Assembly (NCBI GenBank): GCA_016839705.1
Contig: JAEOTR010000072.1
Span: 1-29,926 of the forward strand
Length of the DNA: 29,926 nt
Reading direction: 5' to 3'
From: Promethearchaeota archaeon
Lineage (GTDB): Archaea; Asgardarchaeota; Lokiarchaeia; Sigyniarchaeales; SOKP01
Positions 19,719 to 28,827 of the stretch are shown here, piece by piece. How positions within the stretch are numbered: the stretch's first letter is position 1; each line of letters begins with the position of its first letter. Position numbers and translations under genes: made by a program. The notes beneath the pieces were generated by a model. It was not told the DNA's origin. It saw only the letters and a program-made list of their open reading frames with translations, and did no database searches.

Positions 19719-20022
19719 TTTATATCACTGTCTAAAGTAAACACTTTTTTGACTTACTATATTCTAATTTTGAGTTTATCTTATTGTATTTTTAAAAATA
19801 AAATATTTTAAAATTAAATCTACTGCTTTAATCAAAGAAGTTATCTTAAAACTCACTAAATTTTAACTCAACGAATACTGGATAATAATGGTAATATAGT
19901 ATATAAAAATCTTTTTTTGTTTTTATCAAGAAAATAGAAGATATGTTATTTAAATGATAAAATATAACGATATTATTTTATGAATTATTTTTTTTCACAA
20001 AGGACTTTTTAATAAACAGTTA

Positions 20023-20169
20023 TCAACTTGTATTCACAATCTTGGTAAAGTAACGACTACAAATAATTATAATTGCACCCTCTTCATTAAGCCTTTTAGC
20101 ACTCGCAAAGACTAAACCTTTACTTGATACCAAAACCAGCGCAACTTTATTTTTTAAACCCATATCCAT
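20023..20169 (-). pseudogene. 5' remnant of an SDR oxidoreductase gene (48 codons)
   Basis: GAGGT RBS, then MDMGLKNKVALVLVSSKGLVFASAKRLNEEGAIIIICSRYFTKIVNTS*. This matches the SDR start MDLGL.GKVALV.ASSKGLG.A.A..L..EGA.V.ICSR, with G-to-V in the nucleotide-binding loop and an early stop. Confidence 0.8.
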
Positions 20170-20553
20170 ATTGAATTACCTCATAGATTTTTATTTTAAA
20201 TCAAAGTTAAGATATATAGAACATTTATAAAAAAATAAATTACACCTCGTACAATTTTCAGACTTAGAACAATTTGTTGAATAGGGACACTTTATGTCAT
20301 ACTTGTCCAATTTAATCATTACTCTGTGTAATCTTTTTTCAATTTCATTATTCATTATTTATTTTCTACACACAGATAATTATACTGATATAATAACTCT
20401 AATTTGATCCTTAAAAAAATATTTTTCCTAAATTTCCTATGACAGATTTTAAAAAGATAATTTTATAAATTCAAATGATTATAATAGTTTTAAAGATTGA
20501 ATGATATTTTATTATATTAAAAATCATACTATAAAAAAAACTAAAAAAGGTGT

Positions 20554-21015
20554 ATGAGTATAAGTATTGACACCAAAAGCTTCGATAATATTCTCAGTAA
20601 AATAATAAAAAGCGAAAGTGGTATTAAAAAGGTAATCTTGGTAGATAGAACAGGATTAACTATTGCAAGTGTTTCGAAGTTTTCCTATTTCCCAGCTGAC
20701 GTTGATGGAATTGGTGCAATTGCCAGCGCGGTTTTTTGTGCATCAGAAGAACAAGGTAAAAATCTGGAACTTGGCAATCTCGAAATTGTTACGTCAGAAT
20801 TTGGAGGTGGTAAAATTTTCGCTTCAAGTTGCGGACCTAAAGGTGTTCTTACACTTATCTCAGATCCTGACATTAACATCGGATTAATAAGACTTATTCT
20901 TAAAAGATCGGGAGATGAACTAAAAGAAATTTTGGACGAGTTTTTAGCTGAATCACCAGAAATCGTAGATAGCGGTTTGGATTTATCAGACCTCGATCAG
21001 CTTACACCTGATTAA
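20554..21015 (+). CDS. Roadblock/LC7 (MglB/LAMTOR-like) domain protein with acidic C-terminal tail
   Basis: VILVDRTGLTIAS, IGAIASAVF.ASE, EFGGGKIF and INIGLIRLILKR form the roadblock pattern. Confidence 0.92.
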   Translation: MSISIDTKSFDNILSKIIKSESGIKKVILVDRTGLTIASVSKFSYFPADVDGIGAIASAVFCASEEQGKNLELGNLEIVTSEFGGGKIFASSCGPKGVLTLISDPDINIGLIRLILKRSGDELKEILDEFLAESPEIVDSGLDLSDLDQLTPD

Positions 21016-21056: not shown

Positions 21057-21587
21057 TTAATACTTGGTAATTTCATACAAAGTTCTATTACTGAAATTCA
21101 TTTCATTCAAAGAATTGATAAACTTAGTTTGACTTACCCGCTTCCGTGTTAATTTTTCTTTTAAATCTTGTAGGCTCATCATTCTGATTACAGTTTTTTT
21201 AATTTCTTTAAAACCATCAAGATATAACAAGTATAATTTTTTCACCTTGTCTTTAGAGAGTAGAAATTTTACGAGATCCTTTAGATCTTCTACATCATCC
21301 TCTAATATCAAATAATGGTGTCCTTGAAACAGGAGTGCATCGTTTTGACCTTTTATTTCCTCAAACATCTCATAAATGGGACGACATATTTGGCAATCAC
21401 TATACTGAGGCATCTTGTCTCTGCGTGTAAGTTTAAGGTATAAATGATAAGGGTCATCCCTTTGTTCATTATGCTTTTCTTGGAGGTGTGTGAGTATAGA
21501 TTCTCTATCTTTCTCATTCCAAGTACCTTGAGCAAATATTAAAACACAAAAATGCTCATATGCACCGATCTTTTGGTGTCTTGACAT
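21057..21587 (-). CDS. Hypothetical protein (176 aa) with CxxC and several His
   Basis: ATG start with AAGGT upstream; fills the gap between neighbours. No family recognised. Confidence 0.7.
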   Translation of the reverse strand: MSRHQKIGAYEHFCVLIFAQGTWNEKDRESILTHLQEKHNEQRDDPYHLYLKLTRRDKMPQYSDCQICRPIYEMFEEIKGQNDALLFQGHHYLILEDDVEDLKDLVKFLLSKDKVKKLYLLYLDGFKEIKKTVIRMMSLQDLKEKLTRKRVSQTKFINSLNEMNFSNRTLYEITKY

Positions 21588-21706
21588 GTTTTACCTTTTA
21601 ATATAGAGTATAATAATCAAGAAAACATGCTAATTTATATTTTTTACATTGATTTATAATATTTCAGAATTAGTATTCAGTAAAAAGTTGGCTTAAAATT
21701 TTAATA

Positions 21707-22765
21707 CTATAGTAGTTTATTTTTTTTTACAATTTCCTGATAGTGATCTCTTTCCCTTCTTAAAACTTTCAATTCCTTTTTCATTTCAATAATATCATCT
21801 TTGCCTTTATTTGTAACATTGTTTTCTGAAGCAATTTGTTGTTGGATATTCCTTTGTTCCAACTTCAAATTAGTTATGGTTTCTAGATGAGTTTCGCTTT
21901 CACGTTGTGACTTTAAAACCTGAAACTTAAGCTTTTTATTTATCTCATTTAACTTTTCAATTTTTTGATGGAGGTTTTCATTTTCAGTTTTTATCTGTTT
22001 GATTTGTTTCAGCAGTTTTTCAGCGCCTTCTTCAATTTCCTCTTTTTCCTTTAAAATTTTTCTAAGTTTTATAATCTGATCATCCTTCTGCACCACTTCA
22101 CTTTTTTTTTGAGTTGAGGATTGTGTCAACTCTTTGATTTTTATGGTTAGACTAGCATTATATTCATTTAATTCAGCCATTTGGGCAGACCAATTATCCA
22201 TTTTCACGTATAATCCATTTATTTCATCTTTTAGCTCGTCAACATTCCGTAGATGATCTGATCTATCTGAGACTAACAATGAGACTTTTTGGGCAAGATC
22301 GTCAATTCTCGCCTTTTTGGAACTTAGATCTTGAGTTAATTCTAGCATTTGCTGATAATAGGGATCTAGTTCTCCCTTTTTAAGTAAATCAAAACACTTT
22401 ATGAATTGATCATAAAAATCTGGCTCCTCTCTTTTAGGCAACAACTCAAAGGCTATTCTTCTTACTTGGCCTTCAAAAGTTCTTGGGAGAGTATCATCAT
22501 CAGAAAGGAATATCGTTATTGCATGATCAGGCTTTCCAAGAAAACTCCTTTCGGAGTGACCCGTAAAGAAACTTGCTACGCTAACATTACGCTTGATCTG
22601 CATTTCAATATAATTGGGACCCGTTTTTACGGTTTTGTGTTGTTCAAATAAACTTAGTAATCCCGATGTAGAAATTTGTAATTCTTCCGTTATACCCTCT
22701 GGATACTGAACATCAATAGCAGGCTCAGAATTCTCACTTAAAGTTAGAATTACAATTCCTCGCAT
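21707..22765 (-). CDS. Longin/uDENN-like N-terminal domain + ~200-aa coiled coil
   Basis: MRGIVILTLSENSEPAIDVQYP...VASFFTG aligns by eye with the 15426..16553 N-terminus. The C-terminal half is E/K/Q/L heptad-rich. Confidence 0.65.
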   Translation of the reverse strand: MRGIVILTLSENSEPAIDVQYPEGITEELQISTSGLLSLFEQHKTVKTGPNYIEMQIKRNVSVASFFTGHSERSFLGKPDHAITIFLSDDDTLPRTFEGQVRRIAFELLPKREEPDFYDQFIKCFDLLKKGELDPYYQQMLELTQDLSSKKARIDDLAQKVSLLVSDRSDHLRNVDELKDEINGLYVKMDNWSAQMAELNEYNASLTIKIKELTQSSTQKKSEVVQKDDQIIKLRKILKEKEEIEEGAEKLLKQIKQIKTENENLHQKIEKLNEINKKLKFQVLKSQRESETHLETITNLKLEQRNIQQQIASENNVTNKGKDDIIEMKKELKVLRRERDHYQEIVKKNKLL

Positions 22766-22873
22766 GATGCATCCCCAAAAGAACCTTTATAGTATATAAA
22801 TTCTTTTTTTGACTAATTTATATATAGATTATTCTTTAATAAATGTAATAATTCGGTTGATATTTCAAGCTTT

Positions 22874-24421
22874 CTAAGTATAGATATGAGTAAATGTTTC
22901 TACTGTTTTATTAATATCTATCGACAGATAATTTGTTTTAAATAAAGACGCAAAAAATGCTCTATCTTCTGGATCAAAATATCTATAGCCAAATTTCTTC
23001 CATTCTATGTTTGATTGTAATGGGGCGAAGATAGATATGAAATTTTTAACTAAATTCATCAGGAGCATATTTCTCTCTTGTTTGCTTTTACTCGATATGA
23101 CCGTCAATAATACATCATCGTTGAAAGCAGTCCATGTATCTTTAAATTGTAAGCAAAATTGCTTAATATCTATAATATTTCCCACAATCAATTGAGCAAT
23201 TGTGTTTATTGCTGTTTCATAAGTGTTTACCTTATTTTGGTTATATAAGGGATTTGATAGAGTAAGACTCGGAGGACTCTTTAAATCTTTTTGTTGTTGA
23301 GGAACACAATATTCGGGTAATATTCGTAGTTGATTTAATCCAAGAATATTTTTAACATCTCTTAAAGTTCCTCCTGTGTCAAAGAATTGTTTATTGATAA
23401 CATATTTCAGTAATTTTTGTGAATGTACATCCCCAAAATAGGGATAGTCACTAGCGTAAAGGAGATATTCAGACCAAGTTCGATTATCTACTCTTTCTTT
23501 ATTATTTGATTTAAACCATCTTCGAAAACTTTCAAAGAAATTCCCTGCGCCCGCACCATGGAGCATTGAAAGATCCCCATAAGTATTTGGCTGAACAATA
23601 GTATTGTAAACTTCATGATCATCTATATTTCCCTGAGCAAAATGAGCAATAATGACTTTAAAATGAGGTAATAAATCAGGATAACTGGATTTTATTGCAT
23701 TTCTTGTAGATTCGATCAGTTGGCCAATTTGTAGAATTGAGCCTCTTCCTCTTGTATCAAAAATTACAGGCATAGAAAATGACGCTGCTTCTATAAGAAC
23801 TTGAGAAGCTTTTTCTGAGGTAATTTTATCAATCCACCCTTCAGAACGGGGATGCAACTTTAATCCTCGAAGCCCTAACACTTCCCTCATATACCTTACT
23901 TCATTAACAGCTTTCTCTCCTTCCATAGGATCACAACGACCATATCCTATTAATTTCATTGAAAAAGGAAATCGTGTAGTAAAACGTGAAACATTAATAT
24001 TACTTGCCCGATATAGCGCTTCAGGACGTTTATCTCGAAAAACATCTTGAAACGGAAAACACACACCTTGATCTATCATAGAATAAAATTTTGATTTCTC
24101 TTTTAAATCAGAATGTTTTTTTCCAAGCTTCTGTAATGCAATATATAATTTATCTGTAAAAGGATAAGGAGTAAATGACCACGAAATTTTAGTAGTCTTC
24201 CCATCTATATTAGTTGTAAAAGATTGTTCTCCTGTTTTTTCCCAATCTGACTTGATTCTCCCTTGTACATTACCCCAAAAATCAAAAGTTCCCGCGCCTG
24301 GCGCTAATGGATTCATCATTGTAGCACCATCGACGTCTTGACCAATGTGTGAATGAGCATCAATAACAAATATTTTTTCTTCCCATTTTTTTCCATTCTG
24401 TTCTATAGTACACGTGAGCAT
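22874..24421 (-). CDS. Amidohydrolase superfamily (Amidohydro_2-like TIM barrel) with C-terminal extension
   Basis: IDAHSHIG (HxH), GLRGLKLHP, IIAHFAQG, YGDLS and LLYASDYPY. Confidence 0.88.
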   Translation of the reverse strand: MLTCTIEQNGKKWEEKIFVIDAHSHIGQDVDGATMMNPLAPGAGTFDFWGNVQGRIKSDWEKTGEQSFTTNIDGKTTKISWSFTPYPFTDKLYIALQKLGKKHSDLKEKSKFYSMIDQGVCFPFQDVFRDKRPEALYRASNINVSRFTTRFPFSMKLIGYGRCDPMEGEKAVNEVRYMREVLGLRGLKLHPRSEGWIDKITSEKASQVLIEAASFSMPVIFDTRGRGSILQIGQLIESTRNAIKSSYPDLLPHFKVIIAHFAQGNIDDHEVYNTIVQPNTYGDLSMLHGAGAGNFFESFRRWFKSNNKERVDNRTWSEYLLYASDYPYFGDVHSQKLLKYVINKQFFDTGGTLRDVKNILGLNQLRILPEYCVPQQQKDLKSPPSLTLSNPLYNQNKVNTYETAINTIAQLIVGNIIDIKQFCLQFKDTWTAFNDDVLLTVISSKSKQERNMLLMNLVKNFISIFAPLQSNIEWKKFGYRYFDPEDRAFFASLFKTNYLSIDINKTVETFTHIYT

Positions 24422-24448
24422 AACATATCCTCAAAATTATTTTGTTTT

Positions 24449-26119
24449 TTATTCCCTCATTTCCTTTGGAAGAGTTAAAACTCCGGTTAGTGGATTATTT
24501 AGAGGGTCTTGGCAATATTGAATTGTAAAATATATTAAATCATATAATATACTTGGATTTTCCCCATTATCCAATTTATACTGGTACAAACTTAATTGAT
24601 ATTCCGCTTCTGTTATAGGTGGTTCTGCATAAGAAACACTCCCAAATACAGATTGTAATATAGGCTTCATAAACGGTGAATATAGAAAACCTAATTCTTT
24701 TAATTCATCTTTTAAATATATAAACATGCGTTGCACTGCTTGAGTCATGTAACGCACTGGTTGGTTTTCTGGACCAAGATATTGTTCTGCGAAGCTAGGA
24801 TCATATTGTGCTAGTTTGTCACGACTAAGATTGGGAGCAACTCTAAATAAAGAAATTAGACCACGTTCTATTGCTCCTTGTCGATTCATTGTAATTGTTT
24901 CTGAGCCTACATCAGGTACCCAAACACCTTTCTGAAGCAGCTTTTTAGCTTTATAACAGAGGGCTTCAATCAAAAGTGCGATCCCAATTCTACGACATAT
25001 AGAAATTTGAGCATCGCTAATTCTAATCTCTATGGTTCCCCAATCTGTTACAGGGAAGATGTCTTGAAACCTTGCGTCTTCTAAGCTTGCCTTTTGAACT
25101 GTATTGAGTAGAAAATTGATAGAGTTTTCACTAAGATCAATTAAATAAGGAATAAAATGATTCGGATCATTATTGCTCAGCATAGTAGTGTTACTCTTCA
25201 ATCTTAAAGACCGGACGCAGTTAGGTGCTGTAATTCGTTTATTAATGATCTTTACGACATCTGTCGGTTGATTATTTATAATAGGTGAGTTGCATGTAAG
25301 AGCAATGATATGTGGAATAAAATTACGTATCATACAATAACTCTGTACTCTTTCCAGATCTGATTCAAAAGAACCAATATGACTATGATCCGCTTGGGAT
25401 ACTCCGCGCATGTATTCCCTCGTCGCAGGATTAATCGCTGAGGCGATGATATGCAGATCTTTTGGTAATGTAGCTTTAGCTAATAAAAATAGAGTACTAG
25501 CCCAGTATGCTAGTTCTTCAACGTAAACACAGGGGGGAGTTACGAGCTCCAAAATATAAGTAATGGCTGTTACATTTCCATCTCGTGCAAAAGTGTCAAT
25601 ATCTACAGAGGAGTTTCCTAAAGCATAGCGTATATCCATAGCATAGCCCTTTTCGAGATCATCCCGACCCCAAGGCCTAGCCAAGACTTTTTGTCTTATA
25701 TAGTCTGGTACAGGAGGAAAATCAGTTCTACCTTCATACAACATCTCATCCATAATTTTAATCGCATCCTTGACAATTTCCTTCATTCGGTAAACCATTT
25801 CTTCGCCAGGTGGATAGTCTCCATTATCATCTGCGATGATTAGCTCCATTTCAATACCATGGGTATAAGGTAAGGGTGTCCAATGTTCAACATCAACTAA
25901 CATATCCGCCCATGGTCTTTCTGGTATGAATACTTCCCTATAATCTGTTCCCAGAAAGAGTTTATCTCCAGATCTATCAACACTTTGTCCCAATGAAACA
26001 CCTGTGGGAGTAGTAGCTTTAGCTTTTTTTGTTTTTGTAATTAATTGAGAAAAAGCGTCGCTTTGTTCTTTCTTCTTCTCTTTTTTCTTCTTTTCTTTCT
26101 TTTTCTTATCTTTTGCCAT
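24449..26119 (-). CDS. GCS2/YbdK-like carboxylate-amine ligase (glutamate-cysteine ligase family 2 fold)
   Basis: THGIEMELII (GxExE), LELVTPPC, HSHIG (HxH), ALTCNSP and FQDIFP...WGTIEIRISDAQ (T.E.R..D). Confidence 0.85.
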   Translation of the reverse strand: MAKDKKKKEKKKKEKKKEQSDAFSQLITKTKKAKATTPTGVSLGQSVDRSGDKLFLGTDYREVFIPERPWADMLVDVEHWTPLPYTHGIEMELIIADDNGDYPPGEEMVYRMKEIVKDAIKIMDEMLYEGRTDFPPVPDYIRQKVLARPWGRDDLEKGYAMDIRYALGNSSVDIDTFARDGNVTAITYILELVTPPCVYVEELAYWASTLFLLAKATLPKDLHIIASAINPATREYMRGVSQADHSHIGSFESDLERVQSYCMIRNFIPHIIALTCNSPIINNQPTDVVKIINKRITAPNCVRSLRLKSNTTMLSNNDPNHFIPYLIDLSENSINFLLNTVQKASLEDARFQDIFPVTDWGTIEIRISDAQISICRRIGIALLIEALCYKAKKLLQKGVWVPDVGSETITMNRQGAIERGLISLFRVAPNLSRDKLAQYDPSFAEQYLGPENQPVRYMTQAVQRMFIYLKDELKELGFLYSPFMKPILQSVFGSVSYAEPPITEAEYQLSLYQYKLDNGENPSILYDLIYFTIQYCQDPLNNPLTGVLTLPKEMRE

Positions 26120-26202
26120 ATAACCCTTACTCTGTATTTTTCATTTTTCTATTATTAAAATAATTGCCATCTGTTTTATCATTTTGAATGTCCTACTTTT
26201 TC

Positions 26203-27972
26203 CTAGAATAAAGTTTTGATAAATTCTATCAATATATTATAATCATTTATGAACTCATATGAAAGAAGTAAATTAACAATTTCACCTTTAGCTGGAGGTA
26301 TTATTTCTTTTAAGGTATCATAGATCTTGCCTCCTTTAAACATCGAATCATCAATAATTAGATTAACTTTATCCCCCAGTTTGTGAATCTTGGATTTAAG
26401 ATTATCATTCAGATGAGATTCAGATGATATTATAATAGTTGGTTTTCCTAAATATGGGATGAAGTCCAAATTAAAGAGACATAATTGATTTGTCACATTT
26501 GCAAAATTCTTGAAAAACTGGTTCAATGTTGTTTTAAGTATTGTTAATTCATTGTTCTGATAATTATCAATCGAAGGAAAAACATAATATCCTATAGATT
26601 TCTTCATATTAAATTTTAAATCATTATATACACGATCGATGATTGGATATATGCTAAAATTAAAATTAAATAAAGACAGAAAAGCTATTTTAAAATTAAA
26701 ATCTCCTGAAAGAATATTATTGCTTATATTGCCCCCGATACTGCTAAAGCGTTTAATCTCATTCCTAATGTTCGAAACATAAGTATTTAGTAAAAAAAAT
26801 TGAGAAAAAGCTAATTCAGATTCTATTTTAGTTTTTATTTCATCTACAAGTACATATATAATGTCAAATATTTCTTTAGTGATTTTTTCCTTGAGTCCTT
26901 GTTCATGGATTCCTTCAATAATACCATGTGAAACACCAGGATTCTCTATTTCAGCTAAAATGCTTAGATTATCAATAAAAATTTCAGATAAACGTTTTTG
27001 ATGTTTTTTATCATTATTTTGTACTGCCAATTTTACTAATGACTCTATAATACGGTTCAAGATATTAGATAGTTCAGAGGAATTATGTTCTTCATACAGC
27101 TTTTTGGCAATATTAAAGAGTATTGTAATTTTTAAAAATGGATCTTCACTACTTTCAGCTAGTTTTATGGATGAAATCGGATTAACAGGGATTTGATCTA
27201 ACACTATGGATATATATAAATTTTGTTTTATCTTTTGATCTTGTAAATCATTAACTAATTTTATTGCTTCATCCATATTTTCAAACGCAAATGCTCGTAT
27301 CAAATTCGAATAGAAATTAATCTGTTCTGTTGGATCCGATAATCCTAAAGCAAATTCTAGAGATTTTAGTAAATTTTTGTTTGAGAAATATCCTTTCGCT
27401 AATCTCCTTATACTTTCATCAATATCCTTTAATGATACTGTTGGAGATGATATATTACTGGTAGGATCTGCTGATAATGAAGGATTATAGGAGTTTTTCA
27501 TTATCGTTAGTTGTTCTTCACCCTGTTGCAGTTCTTTTAGATTCATCTCATTAGTATAATTTTTAGGGTTCAGCGTCTGAAACTTTTTTGCTTCCTTAAA
27601 GACATATTTTTCTAATAAAGCTTCAACTTTACTTTTCGGGACGGTTTCTCTAACTCTTTGTACTTTTTCAGTGTATTCTATAATCTTAAGCCAATAAGCA
27701 CTAATGGTAAGTTTTCCAAAACCATCTATTTCTGGATTTAAGTTTATATCTACATTTTTAGTCTCATTTGGGGCAAATTCAATTTGATCTCCTAATTCCT
27801 CAGATCTTAAACCAACAGTTAGATTTTCCCCTTCAAAAACAAATTTAAATTTCTCATTTTTAGCTGAATTATTAGTAGCTTGAATGGTAACACCATTTTT
27901 CGACCCAGGAATTAAAAGATTTTGAGGAAATCGTGTTATACTTAAAGTAATAATACTTGATGAATTTGACAT
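26203..27972 (-). CDS. Hypothetical multidomain protein: Ig-like beta N-terminus, helical-repeat middle, alpha/beta C-terminus
   Basis: 589-aa ORF with no signal peptide or obvious TM segment. VTIQATNNS...FKFVFEG...APNETKNVDINLNP...GKLTISAYW is Ig-like. Confidence 0.7.
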   Translation of the reverse strand: MSNSSSIITLSITRFPQNLLIPGSKNGVTIQATNNSAKNEKFKFVFEGENLTVGLRSEELGDQIEFAPNETKNVDINLNPEIDGFGKLTISAYWLKIIEYTEKVQRVRETVPKSKVEALLEKYVFKEAKKFQTLNPKNYTNEMNLKELQQGEEQLTIMKNSYNPSLSADPTSNISSPTVSLKDIDESIRRLAKGYFSNKNLLKSLEFALGLSDPTEQINFYSNLIRAFAFENMDEAIKLVNDLQDQKIKQNLYISIVLDQIPVNPISSIKLAESSEDPFLKITILFNIAKKLYEEHNSSELSNILNRIIESLVKLAVQNNDKKHQKRLSEIFIDNLSILAEIENPGVSHGIIEGIHEQGLKEKITKEIFDIIYVLVDEIKTKIESELAFSQFFLLNTYVSNIRNEIKRFSSIGGNISNNILSGDFNFKIAFLSLFNFNFSIYPIIDRVYNDLKFNMKKSIGYYVFPSIDNYQNNELTILKTTLNQFFKNFANVTNQLCLFNLDFIPYLGKPTIIISSESHLNDNLKSKIHKLGDKVNLIIDDSMFKGGKIYDTLKEIIPPAKGEIVNLLLSYEFINDYNILIEFIKTLF

Positions 27973-28089: not shown

Positions 28090-28827
28090 TTATCTTCCCA
28101 TACGTCTTTTTCTCTGGGTAAAATCAATTAAATCCTCAAGAACCATTTCTTTATTATAATCAGGCCACAAATCATTTCTAAACTTAAATTCTGCGTAGGA
28201 AGAATCCCACAGTAAAAATCCTGAAATTCGAGCTCCGTCAGTCATTCCCGTTCTAATGACATAATCTAATGGTGGGAAATTTTTTGACCAAAGATATTTT
28301 TTAATTAAATCAGTATTGATTTCTCCAGGATCTATATCATCATTAATTATACCTTTAACAGCATCAACAATCTCTTCATGTCCATCGTACATTATGCAAA
28401 GATTTATGAAATTTTGATCATGGTCTTTAGTGAACTCAATTAATTCCAATATCTTTTTCTTTGTCTCTTCTGGGAGCATTCCAATCCTCCCGATTACATT
28501 GAAATTAACTTTTTCTTCTCTAACGATAGACTCATTTACAACAGTATCAACAGCCATAATCATAATTTTATATAAATATTCAAGCTCTTCAGTCGTTCTT
28601 TTCTTCACATTCTCAAGTGATAATATATATAAACTGAGGTATTGGATTCCAGTGTCAAAAAAATCAAACAATCTCTTCTTAAGATTTTCATATCCTACCA
28701 TATGGCCGAAATTAACATCTAGGTTTCGCTCTTTTGCCCATCTTCTGTTGCCATCGATAATTAAACCGATATGTCTTGGTAACCTATCTTTAGCTACTTC
28801 TTTTAGCTCTTCTAAAGAGGATGTCAT
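28090..28827 (-). CDS. uppS: cis-prenyltransferase (polyprenyl/undecaprenyl diphosphate synthase)
   Basis: PRHIGLIIDGNRRWA, LSLENVKKR, YDGHEEI, DYVIRTG...RISGFLLW, LWPDY and C-terminal RRMG (RxG). Confidence 0.96.
   Translation of the reverse strand: MTSSLEELKEVAKDRLPRHIGLIIDGNRRWAKERNLDVNFGHMVGYENLKKRLFDFFDTGIQYLSLYILSLENVKKRTTEELEYLYKIMIMAVDTVVNESIVREEKVNFNVIGRIGMLPEETKKKILELIEFTKDHDQNFINLCIMYDGHEEIVDAVKGIINDDIDPGEINTDLIKKYLWSKNFPPLDYVIRTGMTDGARISGFLLWDSSYAEFKFRNDLWPDYNKEMVLEDLIDFTQRKRRMGR

Follow-up and report, generated by a model that had tools for sequence, protein, structure and literature searches.

The DNA considered here, contig JAEOTR010000072.1, is a stretch of 29,926 nucleotides (nt), referred to as the window, and is one entire 29.9-kb contig of a 3.36-Mb Promethearchaeota assembly that is 93% complete. 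An ABC-2 permease gene and a UppS gene lie upstream of a run of five genes that a preliminary description of this DNA had proposed as a system built around a pair that forms and removes amide bonds: a 589-amino acid (aa) protein, a carboxylate-amine ligase, an amidohydrolase, a longin/coiled-coil protein, and a 176-aa protein (Table 1). The list of open reading frames (ORFs) agreed exactly with the described layout, in which the five genes are co-oriented on the minus strand with gaps of 83, 27, 108, and 119 nt. The first three genes are the Lokiarchaeia-type form of a ligase-hydrolase module specific to Asgard archaea.

Table 1. Features of the three-gene unit and its surroundings (positions in the window).
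Feature	Position	Strand	Basis
589-aa partner/adaptor gene (putative), first gene of the unit	26203..27972	-	ORF; no Pfam family; AlphaFold2 (AF2) model, pLDDT 86
Ig-like beta-sandwich, residues 1-107 of the 589-aa protein	27652..27972	-	All-strand in AF2 model
Alpha-helical repeat region, residues 116-372 of the 589-aa protein	26857..27627	-	TPR/SNAP/14-3-3-like; AF2 model
Alpha/beta C-terminal domain, residues 373-589 of the 589-aa protein	26206..26856	-	Best-conserved part; AF2 model
556-aa YbdK-fold carboxylate-amine ligase (predicted)	24449..26119	-	Motifs, AF2 model, profile scores
Lys-rich disordered tail, ligase residues 1-40	26000..26119	-	K/E-rich translation; pLDDT <50 at 1-38
515-aa Amidohydro_2-like metal hydrolase (predicted), C-terminal extension of ~140 aa	22874..24421	-	Weak Pfam match; invariant metal ligands
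352-aa protein, N-terminal domain and coiled coil; facultative neighbor	21707..22765	-	Coiled-coil matches
176-aa ORF	21057..21587	-	ORF; no family
UppS-type cis-prenyltransferase, upstream neighbor	28090..28827	-	PF01255, 187 bits
Roadblock/LC7 gene, downstream of the five genes	20554-21015	+	

Signals between the genes fit a single transcript running from the 589-aa gene through the ligase gene to the hydrolase gene. A GAGGA motif is located 8 nt before the hydrolase start codon, inside the 27-nt gap that follows the ligase gene, a run of eight T residues and TATA-like boxes occupy the 117-nt gap between the UppS and 589-aa genes, and the 352-aa coiled-coil gene is preceded by a TATA-like box of its own in the 108-nt gap. 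Judged by the same signals, the UppS gene is probably on a transcript separate from the unit.

Profile searches placed the ligase at the margin of known families. Against the Pfam model for GCS2 (PF04107), the window ligase scored 15.0 bits (E 0.016; cut-off 21 bits), and against NCBIfam TIGR02050 it scored 41.7 bits at best (cut-off 176.4); the NCBIfam equivalog cut-offs for YbdK and GshA (NF0100xx, 332-437 bits) were not reached either. At E values up to 1, all eight NCBIfam matches were YbdK or GshA models, and PafA/Dop models were absent from these matches. Relatives at 31-44% identity scored 20-39 bits against GCS2, the majority above the Pfam cut-off; among the five long forms scanned (orthologues at 35-40% identity), four gave 30.7-39.1 bits and the fifth gave 21.4. 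The sequence also matched Escherichia coli YbdK (1r8g) at E 0.013. The AF2 model of the ligase, with a predicted local distance difference test score (pLDDT) of 89.8 and a predicted template-modeling score of 0.89, superposed on YbdK from E. coli and Salmonella (1r8g and 1tt4) with Z scores of 31.0-31.1 and root-mean-square deviations (rmsd) of 2.8-2.9 over 330-332 of ~352 residues, and Foldseek aligned it to YbdK at E 1.5e-14 with a target-normalized template-modeling (TM) score of 0.78. The further Z scores were 25 for plant glutamate-cysteine ligase (GCL; 2gwc), 19.1 for Dop, 18.1 for PafA, 17 for E. coli GshA, and 15 for glutamine synthetases. The window ligase is thus a divergent member of the GCS2/YbdK superfamily and not a clean Pfam member.

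The residues expected of a working enzyme are present. The GhExE signature, which forms part of the Mg/ATP site of the superfamily (PMC2588565), is found as G88-I-E90-M-E92, and E191, H245 and H247 (HxH), and E364, R366, and D369 (ExRxxD) are invariant or nearly so among 30 sequences. The YbdK/GCS2 fold thus comes with every part of the Mg/ATP and acyl-phosphate site, and the protein is reasonably read as a carboxylate-amine ligase that is active and depends on ATP. Compared with YbdK, the core of ~470 aa carries ~140 aa of inserts and is preceded by a Lys-rich N-terminus that is predicted to be disordered over residues 1-38; basic tails or linkers recur in relatives of the ligase.

A search of 1.84 billion cluster representatives resulted in 139 relatives of the ligase, and this search reached YbdK-sized GCS2 proteins solely at E values of 1e-10 to 1e-14. 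A FastTree phylogeny of 93 ligase cores, a quick tree made without named EgtA, GshA, or PafA rows, set the YbdK-sized GCS2 proteins apart from 79 Asgard-type representatives, which form one clade with support 100 on a stem of 0.95. With the exception of one Thermoplasmatota metagenome-assembled genome (MAG), the named members of this clade are exclusively Asgard. The window ligase falls in a subclade of seven members labeled Loki, Hel, and Heimdall, consisting of stand-alone 466-610-aa forms and one 375-aa fragment. Across the tree, 55 of the 93 cores lie within proteins longer than 700 aa and up to 3804 aa; these large proteins carry Ig-like repeats, HhH domains, zinc ribbons, or basic linkers, and several relatives have N- or C-terminal transmembrane anchors. 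In the 2783-3804-aa proteins P0271, P0274, and P0293 the ligase domain sits near the C-terminus; one of these has an HhH domain, and the 3804-aa protein has no Pfam family at all. No second PF04107 gene was found in the genome of the window.

The hydrolase is similarly divergent. It scored 14.9 bits against Amidohydro_2 (PF04909), short of the cut-off of 26.4, and an orthologue in another locus (L021, 2352-3812) scored 63.9 bits, above the cut-off. On sequence grounds, the window protein is a divergent Amidohydro_2 member. Residues D21, H23, H25, H190, H260, and D325 are invariant in eight sequences down to 24% identity and supply all metal ligands of the superfamily, namely an HxH motif on strand 1, His residues on strands 5 and 6, and Asp on strand 8. 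These ligands are common to ACMSD, LigW, and LigI, from which the window hydrolase differs by an insert at residues 58-114 and by its C-terminal extension. Characterized Amidohydro_2 members are mostly decarboxylases, hydratases, and lactonases that act on small molecules. The best PDB sequence matches of the hydrolase family profile were LigW-type decarboxylases (E 0.07-0.1), and the family name "amidohydrolase" is therefore no proof of amide cleavage. The enzyme labels of the preliminary description accordingly hold through relatives that pass the Pfam cut-offs and, for the ligase, through the match of its model to YbdK, and they are weak for the window's own sequences, which stay below the cut-offs. 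Its remark that both proteins exceed the minimal size of their families was also borne out, as they measure 556 and 515 aa against 352-372 aa for YbdK and 289 positions for the Amidohydro_2 profile.

The gene order was then followed across the phylum. A scan of species-representative genomes with an aligned query resulted in 155 relatives, from which 80 species-level loci were kept. The order 589-aa gene, ligase, hydrolase was present in every locus fetched from the family and order of the window. Over all species-level loci, the three genes kept this order and a common direction in 70 of 80, and most of the others end at contig edges. Where the contig leaves sufficient room, the ligase gene is immediately preceded by a co-directional gene for a relative of the 589-aa protein in 70 of 71 loci and followed by a co-directional hydrolase gene in 60 of 61. 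If the hydrolase gene was present downstream, it began within 100 nt of the ligase in 42 of the 60 cases and followed 1-5.4 kb of inserted genes in the other 18. This junction is an insertion hot spot (L029 7311-8606; L030 11352-13296; L032 10843-12477), and the inserts include an opposite-strand CitMHS transporter gene as well as a Gtr1/RagA-like small GTPase gene accompanied by a 223-aa gene. Median identity to the window over the 80 loci was 82% for the ligase, 71% for the hydrolase, 69% for UppS, 53% for the coiled-coil protein, and 41% for the 589-aa protein. The 80 loci extend to Helarchaeota and to a cultured species, Ca. Lokiarchaeum ossiferum B35, which carries the unit at ~4.900-4.905 Mb of CP104013.1. 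Two matching contigs (L115/L114) bear other taxonomic labels: one titled "Candidatus Nanopelagicaceae bacterium" holds the full UppS, 589-aa gene, ligase, and hydrolase block, in which the ligase shares 85% identity with that of the window, and one from a "Bathyarchaeota" MAG holds a ligase at 50% identity. Both contigs are probably misbinned.

Co-occurrence was nearly all-or-none. Among 201 Asgard genomes sampled for strong matches, 96 contained both the ligase and the hydrolase, 99 contained neither, three contained the ligase alone, and three the hydrolase alone. Fragmented or incomplete assemblies account for most of the genomes with a single gene. The arrangement of the two genes changes in distant families: they are convergent and ~5 kb apart in families f8 and f19, overlapping with the hydrolase first in f22, adjacent in f27, and separated by 10-12 kb in f7. 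A profile search of f7, f8, and f19 found stand-alone homologues of the C-terminal domain of the 589-aa protein, 220-263 aa in length, encoded directly upstream of and co-directional with the ligase in every case, and in Helarchaeota loci a short partner, a 501-aa ligase, and the hydrolase are all adjacent. The C-terminal domain is therefore, by its sequence distribution, a phylum-wide partner of the ligase, which is a new result of this analysis. The ligase and hydrolase are thus a real co-conserved pair, the ligase stands apart from ordinary gamma-glutamylcysteine ligases, and the 589-aa protein is a conserved partner for which the scaffold or adaptor label is reasonable; these points agree with the preliminary description, and neither of the two outcomes that it had named as refuting its proposal was observed. 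Among its five genes, co-conservation goes far beyond chance for these three; it is partial for the 352-aa gene and missing for the 176-aa ORF.

The 589-aa protein, which matched no Pfam family in a Pfam scan, was examined through its AF2 model (pLDDT 86). In VIA, the Ig-like sandwich (residues 1-107) gave Z 9-10.6 with a range of sandwiches that includes SPD-2/ASH and the MG type, a generic fold similarity. The helical region (residues 116-372) gave TPR-, SNAP-, and 14-3-3-like matches at Z 9-12 and contains an MIT-like three-helix unit at residues 276-346; this range is noise for helical repeats, and the likeness to MIT, gamma-SNAP, or 14-3-3 proteins is a lead at most. Among the homologues, one carries the database name "Tetratricopeptide domain protein". 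Two further candidates were rejected. A Foldseek match of the whole model to alpha-2-macroglobulin and complement proteins (E ~1e-8) arises from the sandwich-plus-helices composition, with a TM score of 0.13, an rmsd of 24-38, and no invariant thioester Cys, and no significant profile match supported an origin of the sandwich and the helical region in the C-terminal extension that long ligases carry. Fusions between partner and ligase were likewise absent among the 139 ligase representatives, and an apparent fusion in one genome (G198, a 974-aa frame) is produced by a 100-N scaffold gap that joins the two genes (contig C11; L124 3056-3155).

The majority of the invariant residues of the 589-aa protein fall in its alpha/beta domain (residues 373-589). 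The best solved match of this domain is 2odf (Z 10.0, rmsd 3.5, 168 aa), a structure of the N-formylglutamate amidohydrolase (FGase) family, followed here by pyroglutamyl peptidase 6ltq (Z 8.8). Among viral models (BFVD) it matched a phage poly-gamma-glutamate hydrolase (PghP) and a Pithovirus FGase weakly (E 0.0045-0.027), and language-model (atlas) features point to the same glutamyl-amide hydrolase families with a score of 0.85. The sequence profile of the domain found no match among PDB sequences. FGase, PghP, and pyroglutamyl peptidase (Pcp) all bind glutamate-derived amides, and their catalytic sites consist of a Zn-binding His/Glu/His set (PghP) or a Cys-His-Glu triad (Pcp). Unlike these enzymes, to which no sequence similarity was found, the C-terminal domain has no invariant His or Cys in alignments of 34 full-length and 16 domain sequences; D541 is the sole column invariant phylum-wide. 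Because no invariant His or Cys is available for such catalytic sites, the domain is probably a non-catalytic binding module rather than an enzyme. A complex prediction for ligase residues 40-556 with this domain returned a score of 0.00, which is uninformative either way.

The remaining genes around the unit are more loosely associated. The 352-aa coiled-coil gene follows the unit in 32 of 48 loci with room and is a facultative neighbor, not part of the core. Its coiled coil is clear in profile matches; the longin domain assigned to it earlier was not confirmed, as residues 1-135 gave no longin match by Pfam or by PDB profile, and the N-terminal domain yielded one weak atlas lead (0.80) to a cluster with NPR2 in 19% of its members. 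The 176-aa protein, which ends in ...EITKY, had been counted as a member of the unit and must be removed from it, since no homologue was found in ~100 related loci; either the ORF is an orphan confined to this lineage, or it is no real gene. Among the ORFs read in the window, none resembled a ubiquitin-like protein with a terminal Gly, with no search aimed at such proteins having been made. A Cdc48N-vWA gene is associated with the unit at a distance: a four-sequence profile identified a single homologue per genome, at E ~1e-87 to 1e-94 and in frames of ~560-770 aa, in 33 of the 40 genomes from the family of the window, among them every one of the four congeners searched, and if the gene is on the same contig as the unit, it is located 8-55 kb downstream of the hydrolase. 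Neither a single-protein query nor the profile found it in the 93%-complete assembly of the window, where the contig with the unit extends 22.9 kb past the hydrolase. This absence is likely an assembly gap; the matches in 33 of 40 family genomes speak against a loss of the vWA partner from the lineage.

Isoprenoid-phosphate genes of different kinds flank the module in two lineages. UppS is directly upstream of the unit in 46 of 53 loci with room, and in f7 all six genomes examined have a membrane gene of the DUF92 family (PF01940), a prenyl-phosphate-kinase family, as the immediate downstream neighbor of the long ligase (for example locus L024 11310-12314; genomes G103, G087, G137, G093, and G128). 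In L024 the DUF92 gene is followed by SPFH/NfeD and Rce1-like genes, and in L023 an M48 peptidase gene is nearby. Over the 80 species-level loci, no further biosynthetic enzyme or transporter and no small gene is conserved beside the unit. The absence of a glutathione synthetase gene from the window was noted correctly in the preliminary description; a gamma-glutamyltranspeptidase gene and a GSH-S_ATP-type ATP-grasp gene are present elsewhere in the genome. On the other side of the five genes, the Roadblock/LC7 gene has a median identity of 93% in 25 loci, and its strand relative to the module flips among genomes. It is separated from a 1054-aa gene on the minus strand by an 836-nt stretch (19719-20553) without an ORF of at least 80 aa. 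PADLOC returned no defense-system match beyond coiled-coil noise.

Known systems resemble parts of the module. With YbdK and other GCS2 enzymes the Asgard ligase shares the fold, the GhExE, HxH, and ExRxxD motifs, and presumably ATP-dependent acyl-phosphate chemistry; it differs in falling below the Pfam and NCBIfam cut-offs, in forming a separate clade, in its fixed partner genes, and in the fusion of many members to giant proteins. Pupylation in Actinobacteria (PafA/Dop/Pup) likewise pairs a ligase of the glutamine synthetase/GCS fold with an opposing hydrolytic enzyme, and because PafA has been argued to derive from a GCS2 precursor (Iyer et al. 2008; PMC2588565), a GCS2 offshoot that serves protein tagging has a precedent. 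The Asgard ligase model, however, matches PafA and Dop (Z 18.1-19.1) far more weakly than YbdK, its hydrolase is a predicted TIM-barrel-type metal amidohydrolase rather than a paralogue of the ligase, and the window showed no connection to a proteasome. A further resemblance, a lead at the level of the fold, is the superposition of the C-terminal domain on 2odf and 6ltq and, weakly, on PghP and viral FGase models. A full-text literature search returned no description of the ligase family or of the module in Asgard archaea, with a mention in the ligase survey of Iyer et al. 2009 being possible; the review "Redox and Thiols in Archaea" merely counts GshA-type matches for Asgard.

The conserved order, the near all-or-none co-occurrence, and the constant adjacency of a C-terminal-domain homologue to the ligase make it very probable, on the strength of alignments and models, that the 589-aa gene, the ligase, and the hydrolase constitute one functional module in which both ligase and hydrolase are active. 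In the mechanism we favor, the ligase would phosphorylate a carboxylate, most likely the gamma-carboxylate of glutamate as in all characterized relatives, and join it to an amine. The 589-aa protein would be a non-catalytic subunit or adaptor that presents the substrate or the product and docks via a C-terminal domain resembling glutamyl-amide hydrolases in fold but lacking their catalytic residues; the hydrolase would trim or reverse the product of the ligase, and the loosely linked Cdc48N-vWA protein may be a further partner. The substrate would be macromolecular or surface-bound, either a protein or something at the membrane, rather than a free metabolite. Several features favor this leaning: many relatives are fused to giant non-enzymatic proteins, transmembrane anchors and basic disordered segments recur, the conserved partners are of the binding type, no companion enzyme or transporter is conserved, and the GCS2 precursor argued for the Pup ligase offers a precedent. 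The full statement, combining the module with a macromolecular or surface-bound substrate and an adaptor role, is put forward tentatively, as a reading that falls somewhat short of probable.

Several observations weigh against this proposal. The structures nearest to the ligase model are small-molecule ligases (YbdK at Z 31 and plant GCL at Z 25), with PafA and Dop at Z 18-19. The nearest relatives of the hydrolase are Amidohydro_2 decarboxylases of small aromatic acids (LigW) and not amide hydrolases, and its role as an "eraser" is an assumption. The FGase/PghP-type fold of the C-terminal domain is a lead from moderate scores (Z 10, Foldseek E >0.001, and atlas 0.85) without sequence support. 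Co-transcription of ligase and hydrolase is not universal, as the intervening genes in 18 of the 60 loci are unrelated. The unit contains no Pup-like gene, that is, one for a small disordered tag with a GGQ or GGE end, and the gaps of 27-119 nt are too short to hold one. Because the genome has a gamma-glutamyltranspeptidase, free gamma-glutamyl compounds may belong to its metabolism.

The strongest competitor is a small-molecule pathway in which the ligase would make a free gamma-glutamyl or other amide or a dipeptide (a thiol, an osmolyte, or a cofactor precursor), the Amidohydro_2 enzyme would modify or recycle it, and the 589-aa protein would have a regulatory role like that of the modifier subunit in eukaryotic glutamate-cysteine ligase. 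It would account for the proximity of the ligase model to YbdK and plant GCL, for the small-molecule relatives of the hydrolase, for a unit without a tag gene, and for a genome that has no other PF04107 gene and does contain gamma-glutamyltranspeptidase and GSH-S_ATP-like genes. We nevertheless consider it somewhat unlikely: most members of the family reside within non-enzymatic proteins of 700-3800 aa or are membrane-anchored, an uncommon arrangement for enzymes that make metabolites, the partners that are conserved are binding modules and not enzymes or transporters, and the ligase lies far below the YbdK and GshA equivalog cut-offs in a clade of its own.

A bolder version of the favored module can also be formulated. 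It would be an Asgard system of reversible protein modification, built from a GCS2-type ligase independently of pupylation, in which target proteins receive a glutamyl-type amide mark from the ligase. The degenerate glutamyl-amide-hydrolase domain of the 589-aa protein would read or present this mark, the metal hydrolase would erase it, and the Cdc48N-vWA protein would couple marked proteins to an AAA+ unfoldase. In this complete form the proposal is distinctly unlikely.

The flanking isoprenoid genes suggest chemistry at the membrane surface, in which the module would act at the cytoplasmic face and amidate a carboxylate, carried either by a lipid head group or by a glycan linked to polyprenyl phosphate. 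The positions of UppS and DUF92 directly beside the unit or the long ligase fit such a role, as do the transmembrane anchors of several ligase relatives and the Lys-rich ligase tail, which could bind anionic membranes. The two syntenies, each at the level of a family, represent at most two independent events, however, no glycosyltransferase or flippase is conserved nearby, the neighborhoods in f8 and f19 contain no isoprenoid genes, and the genome of the window has no DUF92 match; this explanation appears quite improbable. That the genes are neighbors by descent only and act in unrelated processes, to which the insertions between ligase and hydrolase and their 10-12-kb separation in f7 might point, can hardly be right given presence and absence that are near all-or-none in 201 genomes of many families, at least four linkage arrangements (adjacent, convergent, overlapping, and within 12 kb), and a C-terminal-domain partner that is invariably adjacent to the ligase.

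New here are a model of the structure of the 589-aa protein, the finding that its C-terminal domain is paired with the ligase throughout the phylum, the dispersed position of the vWA partner, and the occurrence of the unit in a cultured species. The small protein whose gene precedes that of the ligase is a member of the module, whose ligase is among the most conserved proteins of the neighborhood, with a median identity over 80 species above that of the housekeeping UppS. If the module modifies macromolecules, it would represent a second independent recruitment of a glutamate-cysteine-ligase-type enzyme for tagging, after pupylation, and such tagging would sit in the lineage that gave rise to the protein-modification systems of eukaryotes; if it makes a metabolite, that compound would be one specific to Asgard archaea. 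As Ca. Lokiarchaeum ossiferum B35 is cultured and carries the unit, these possibilities are directly testable.

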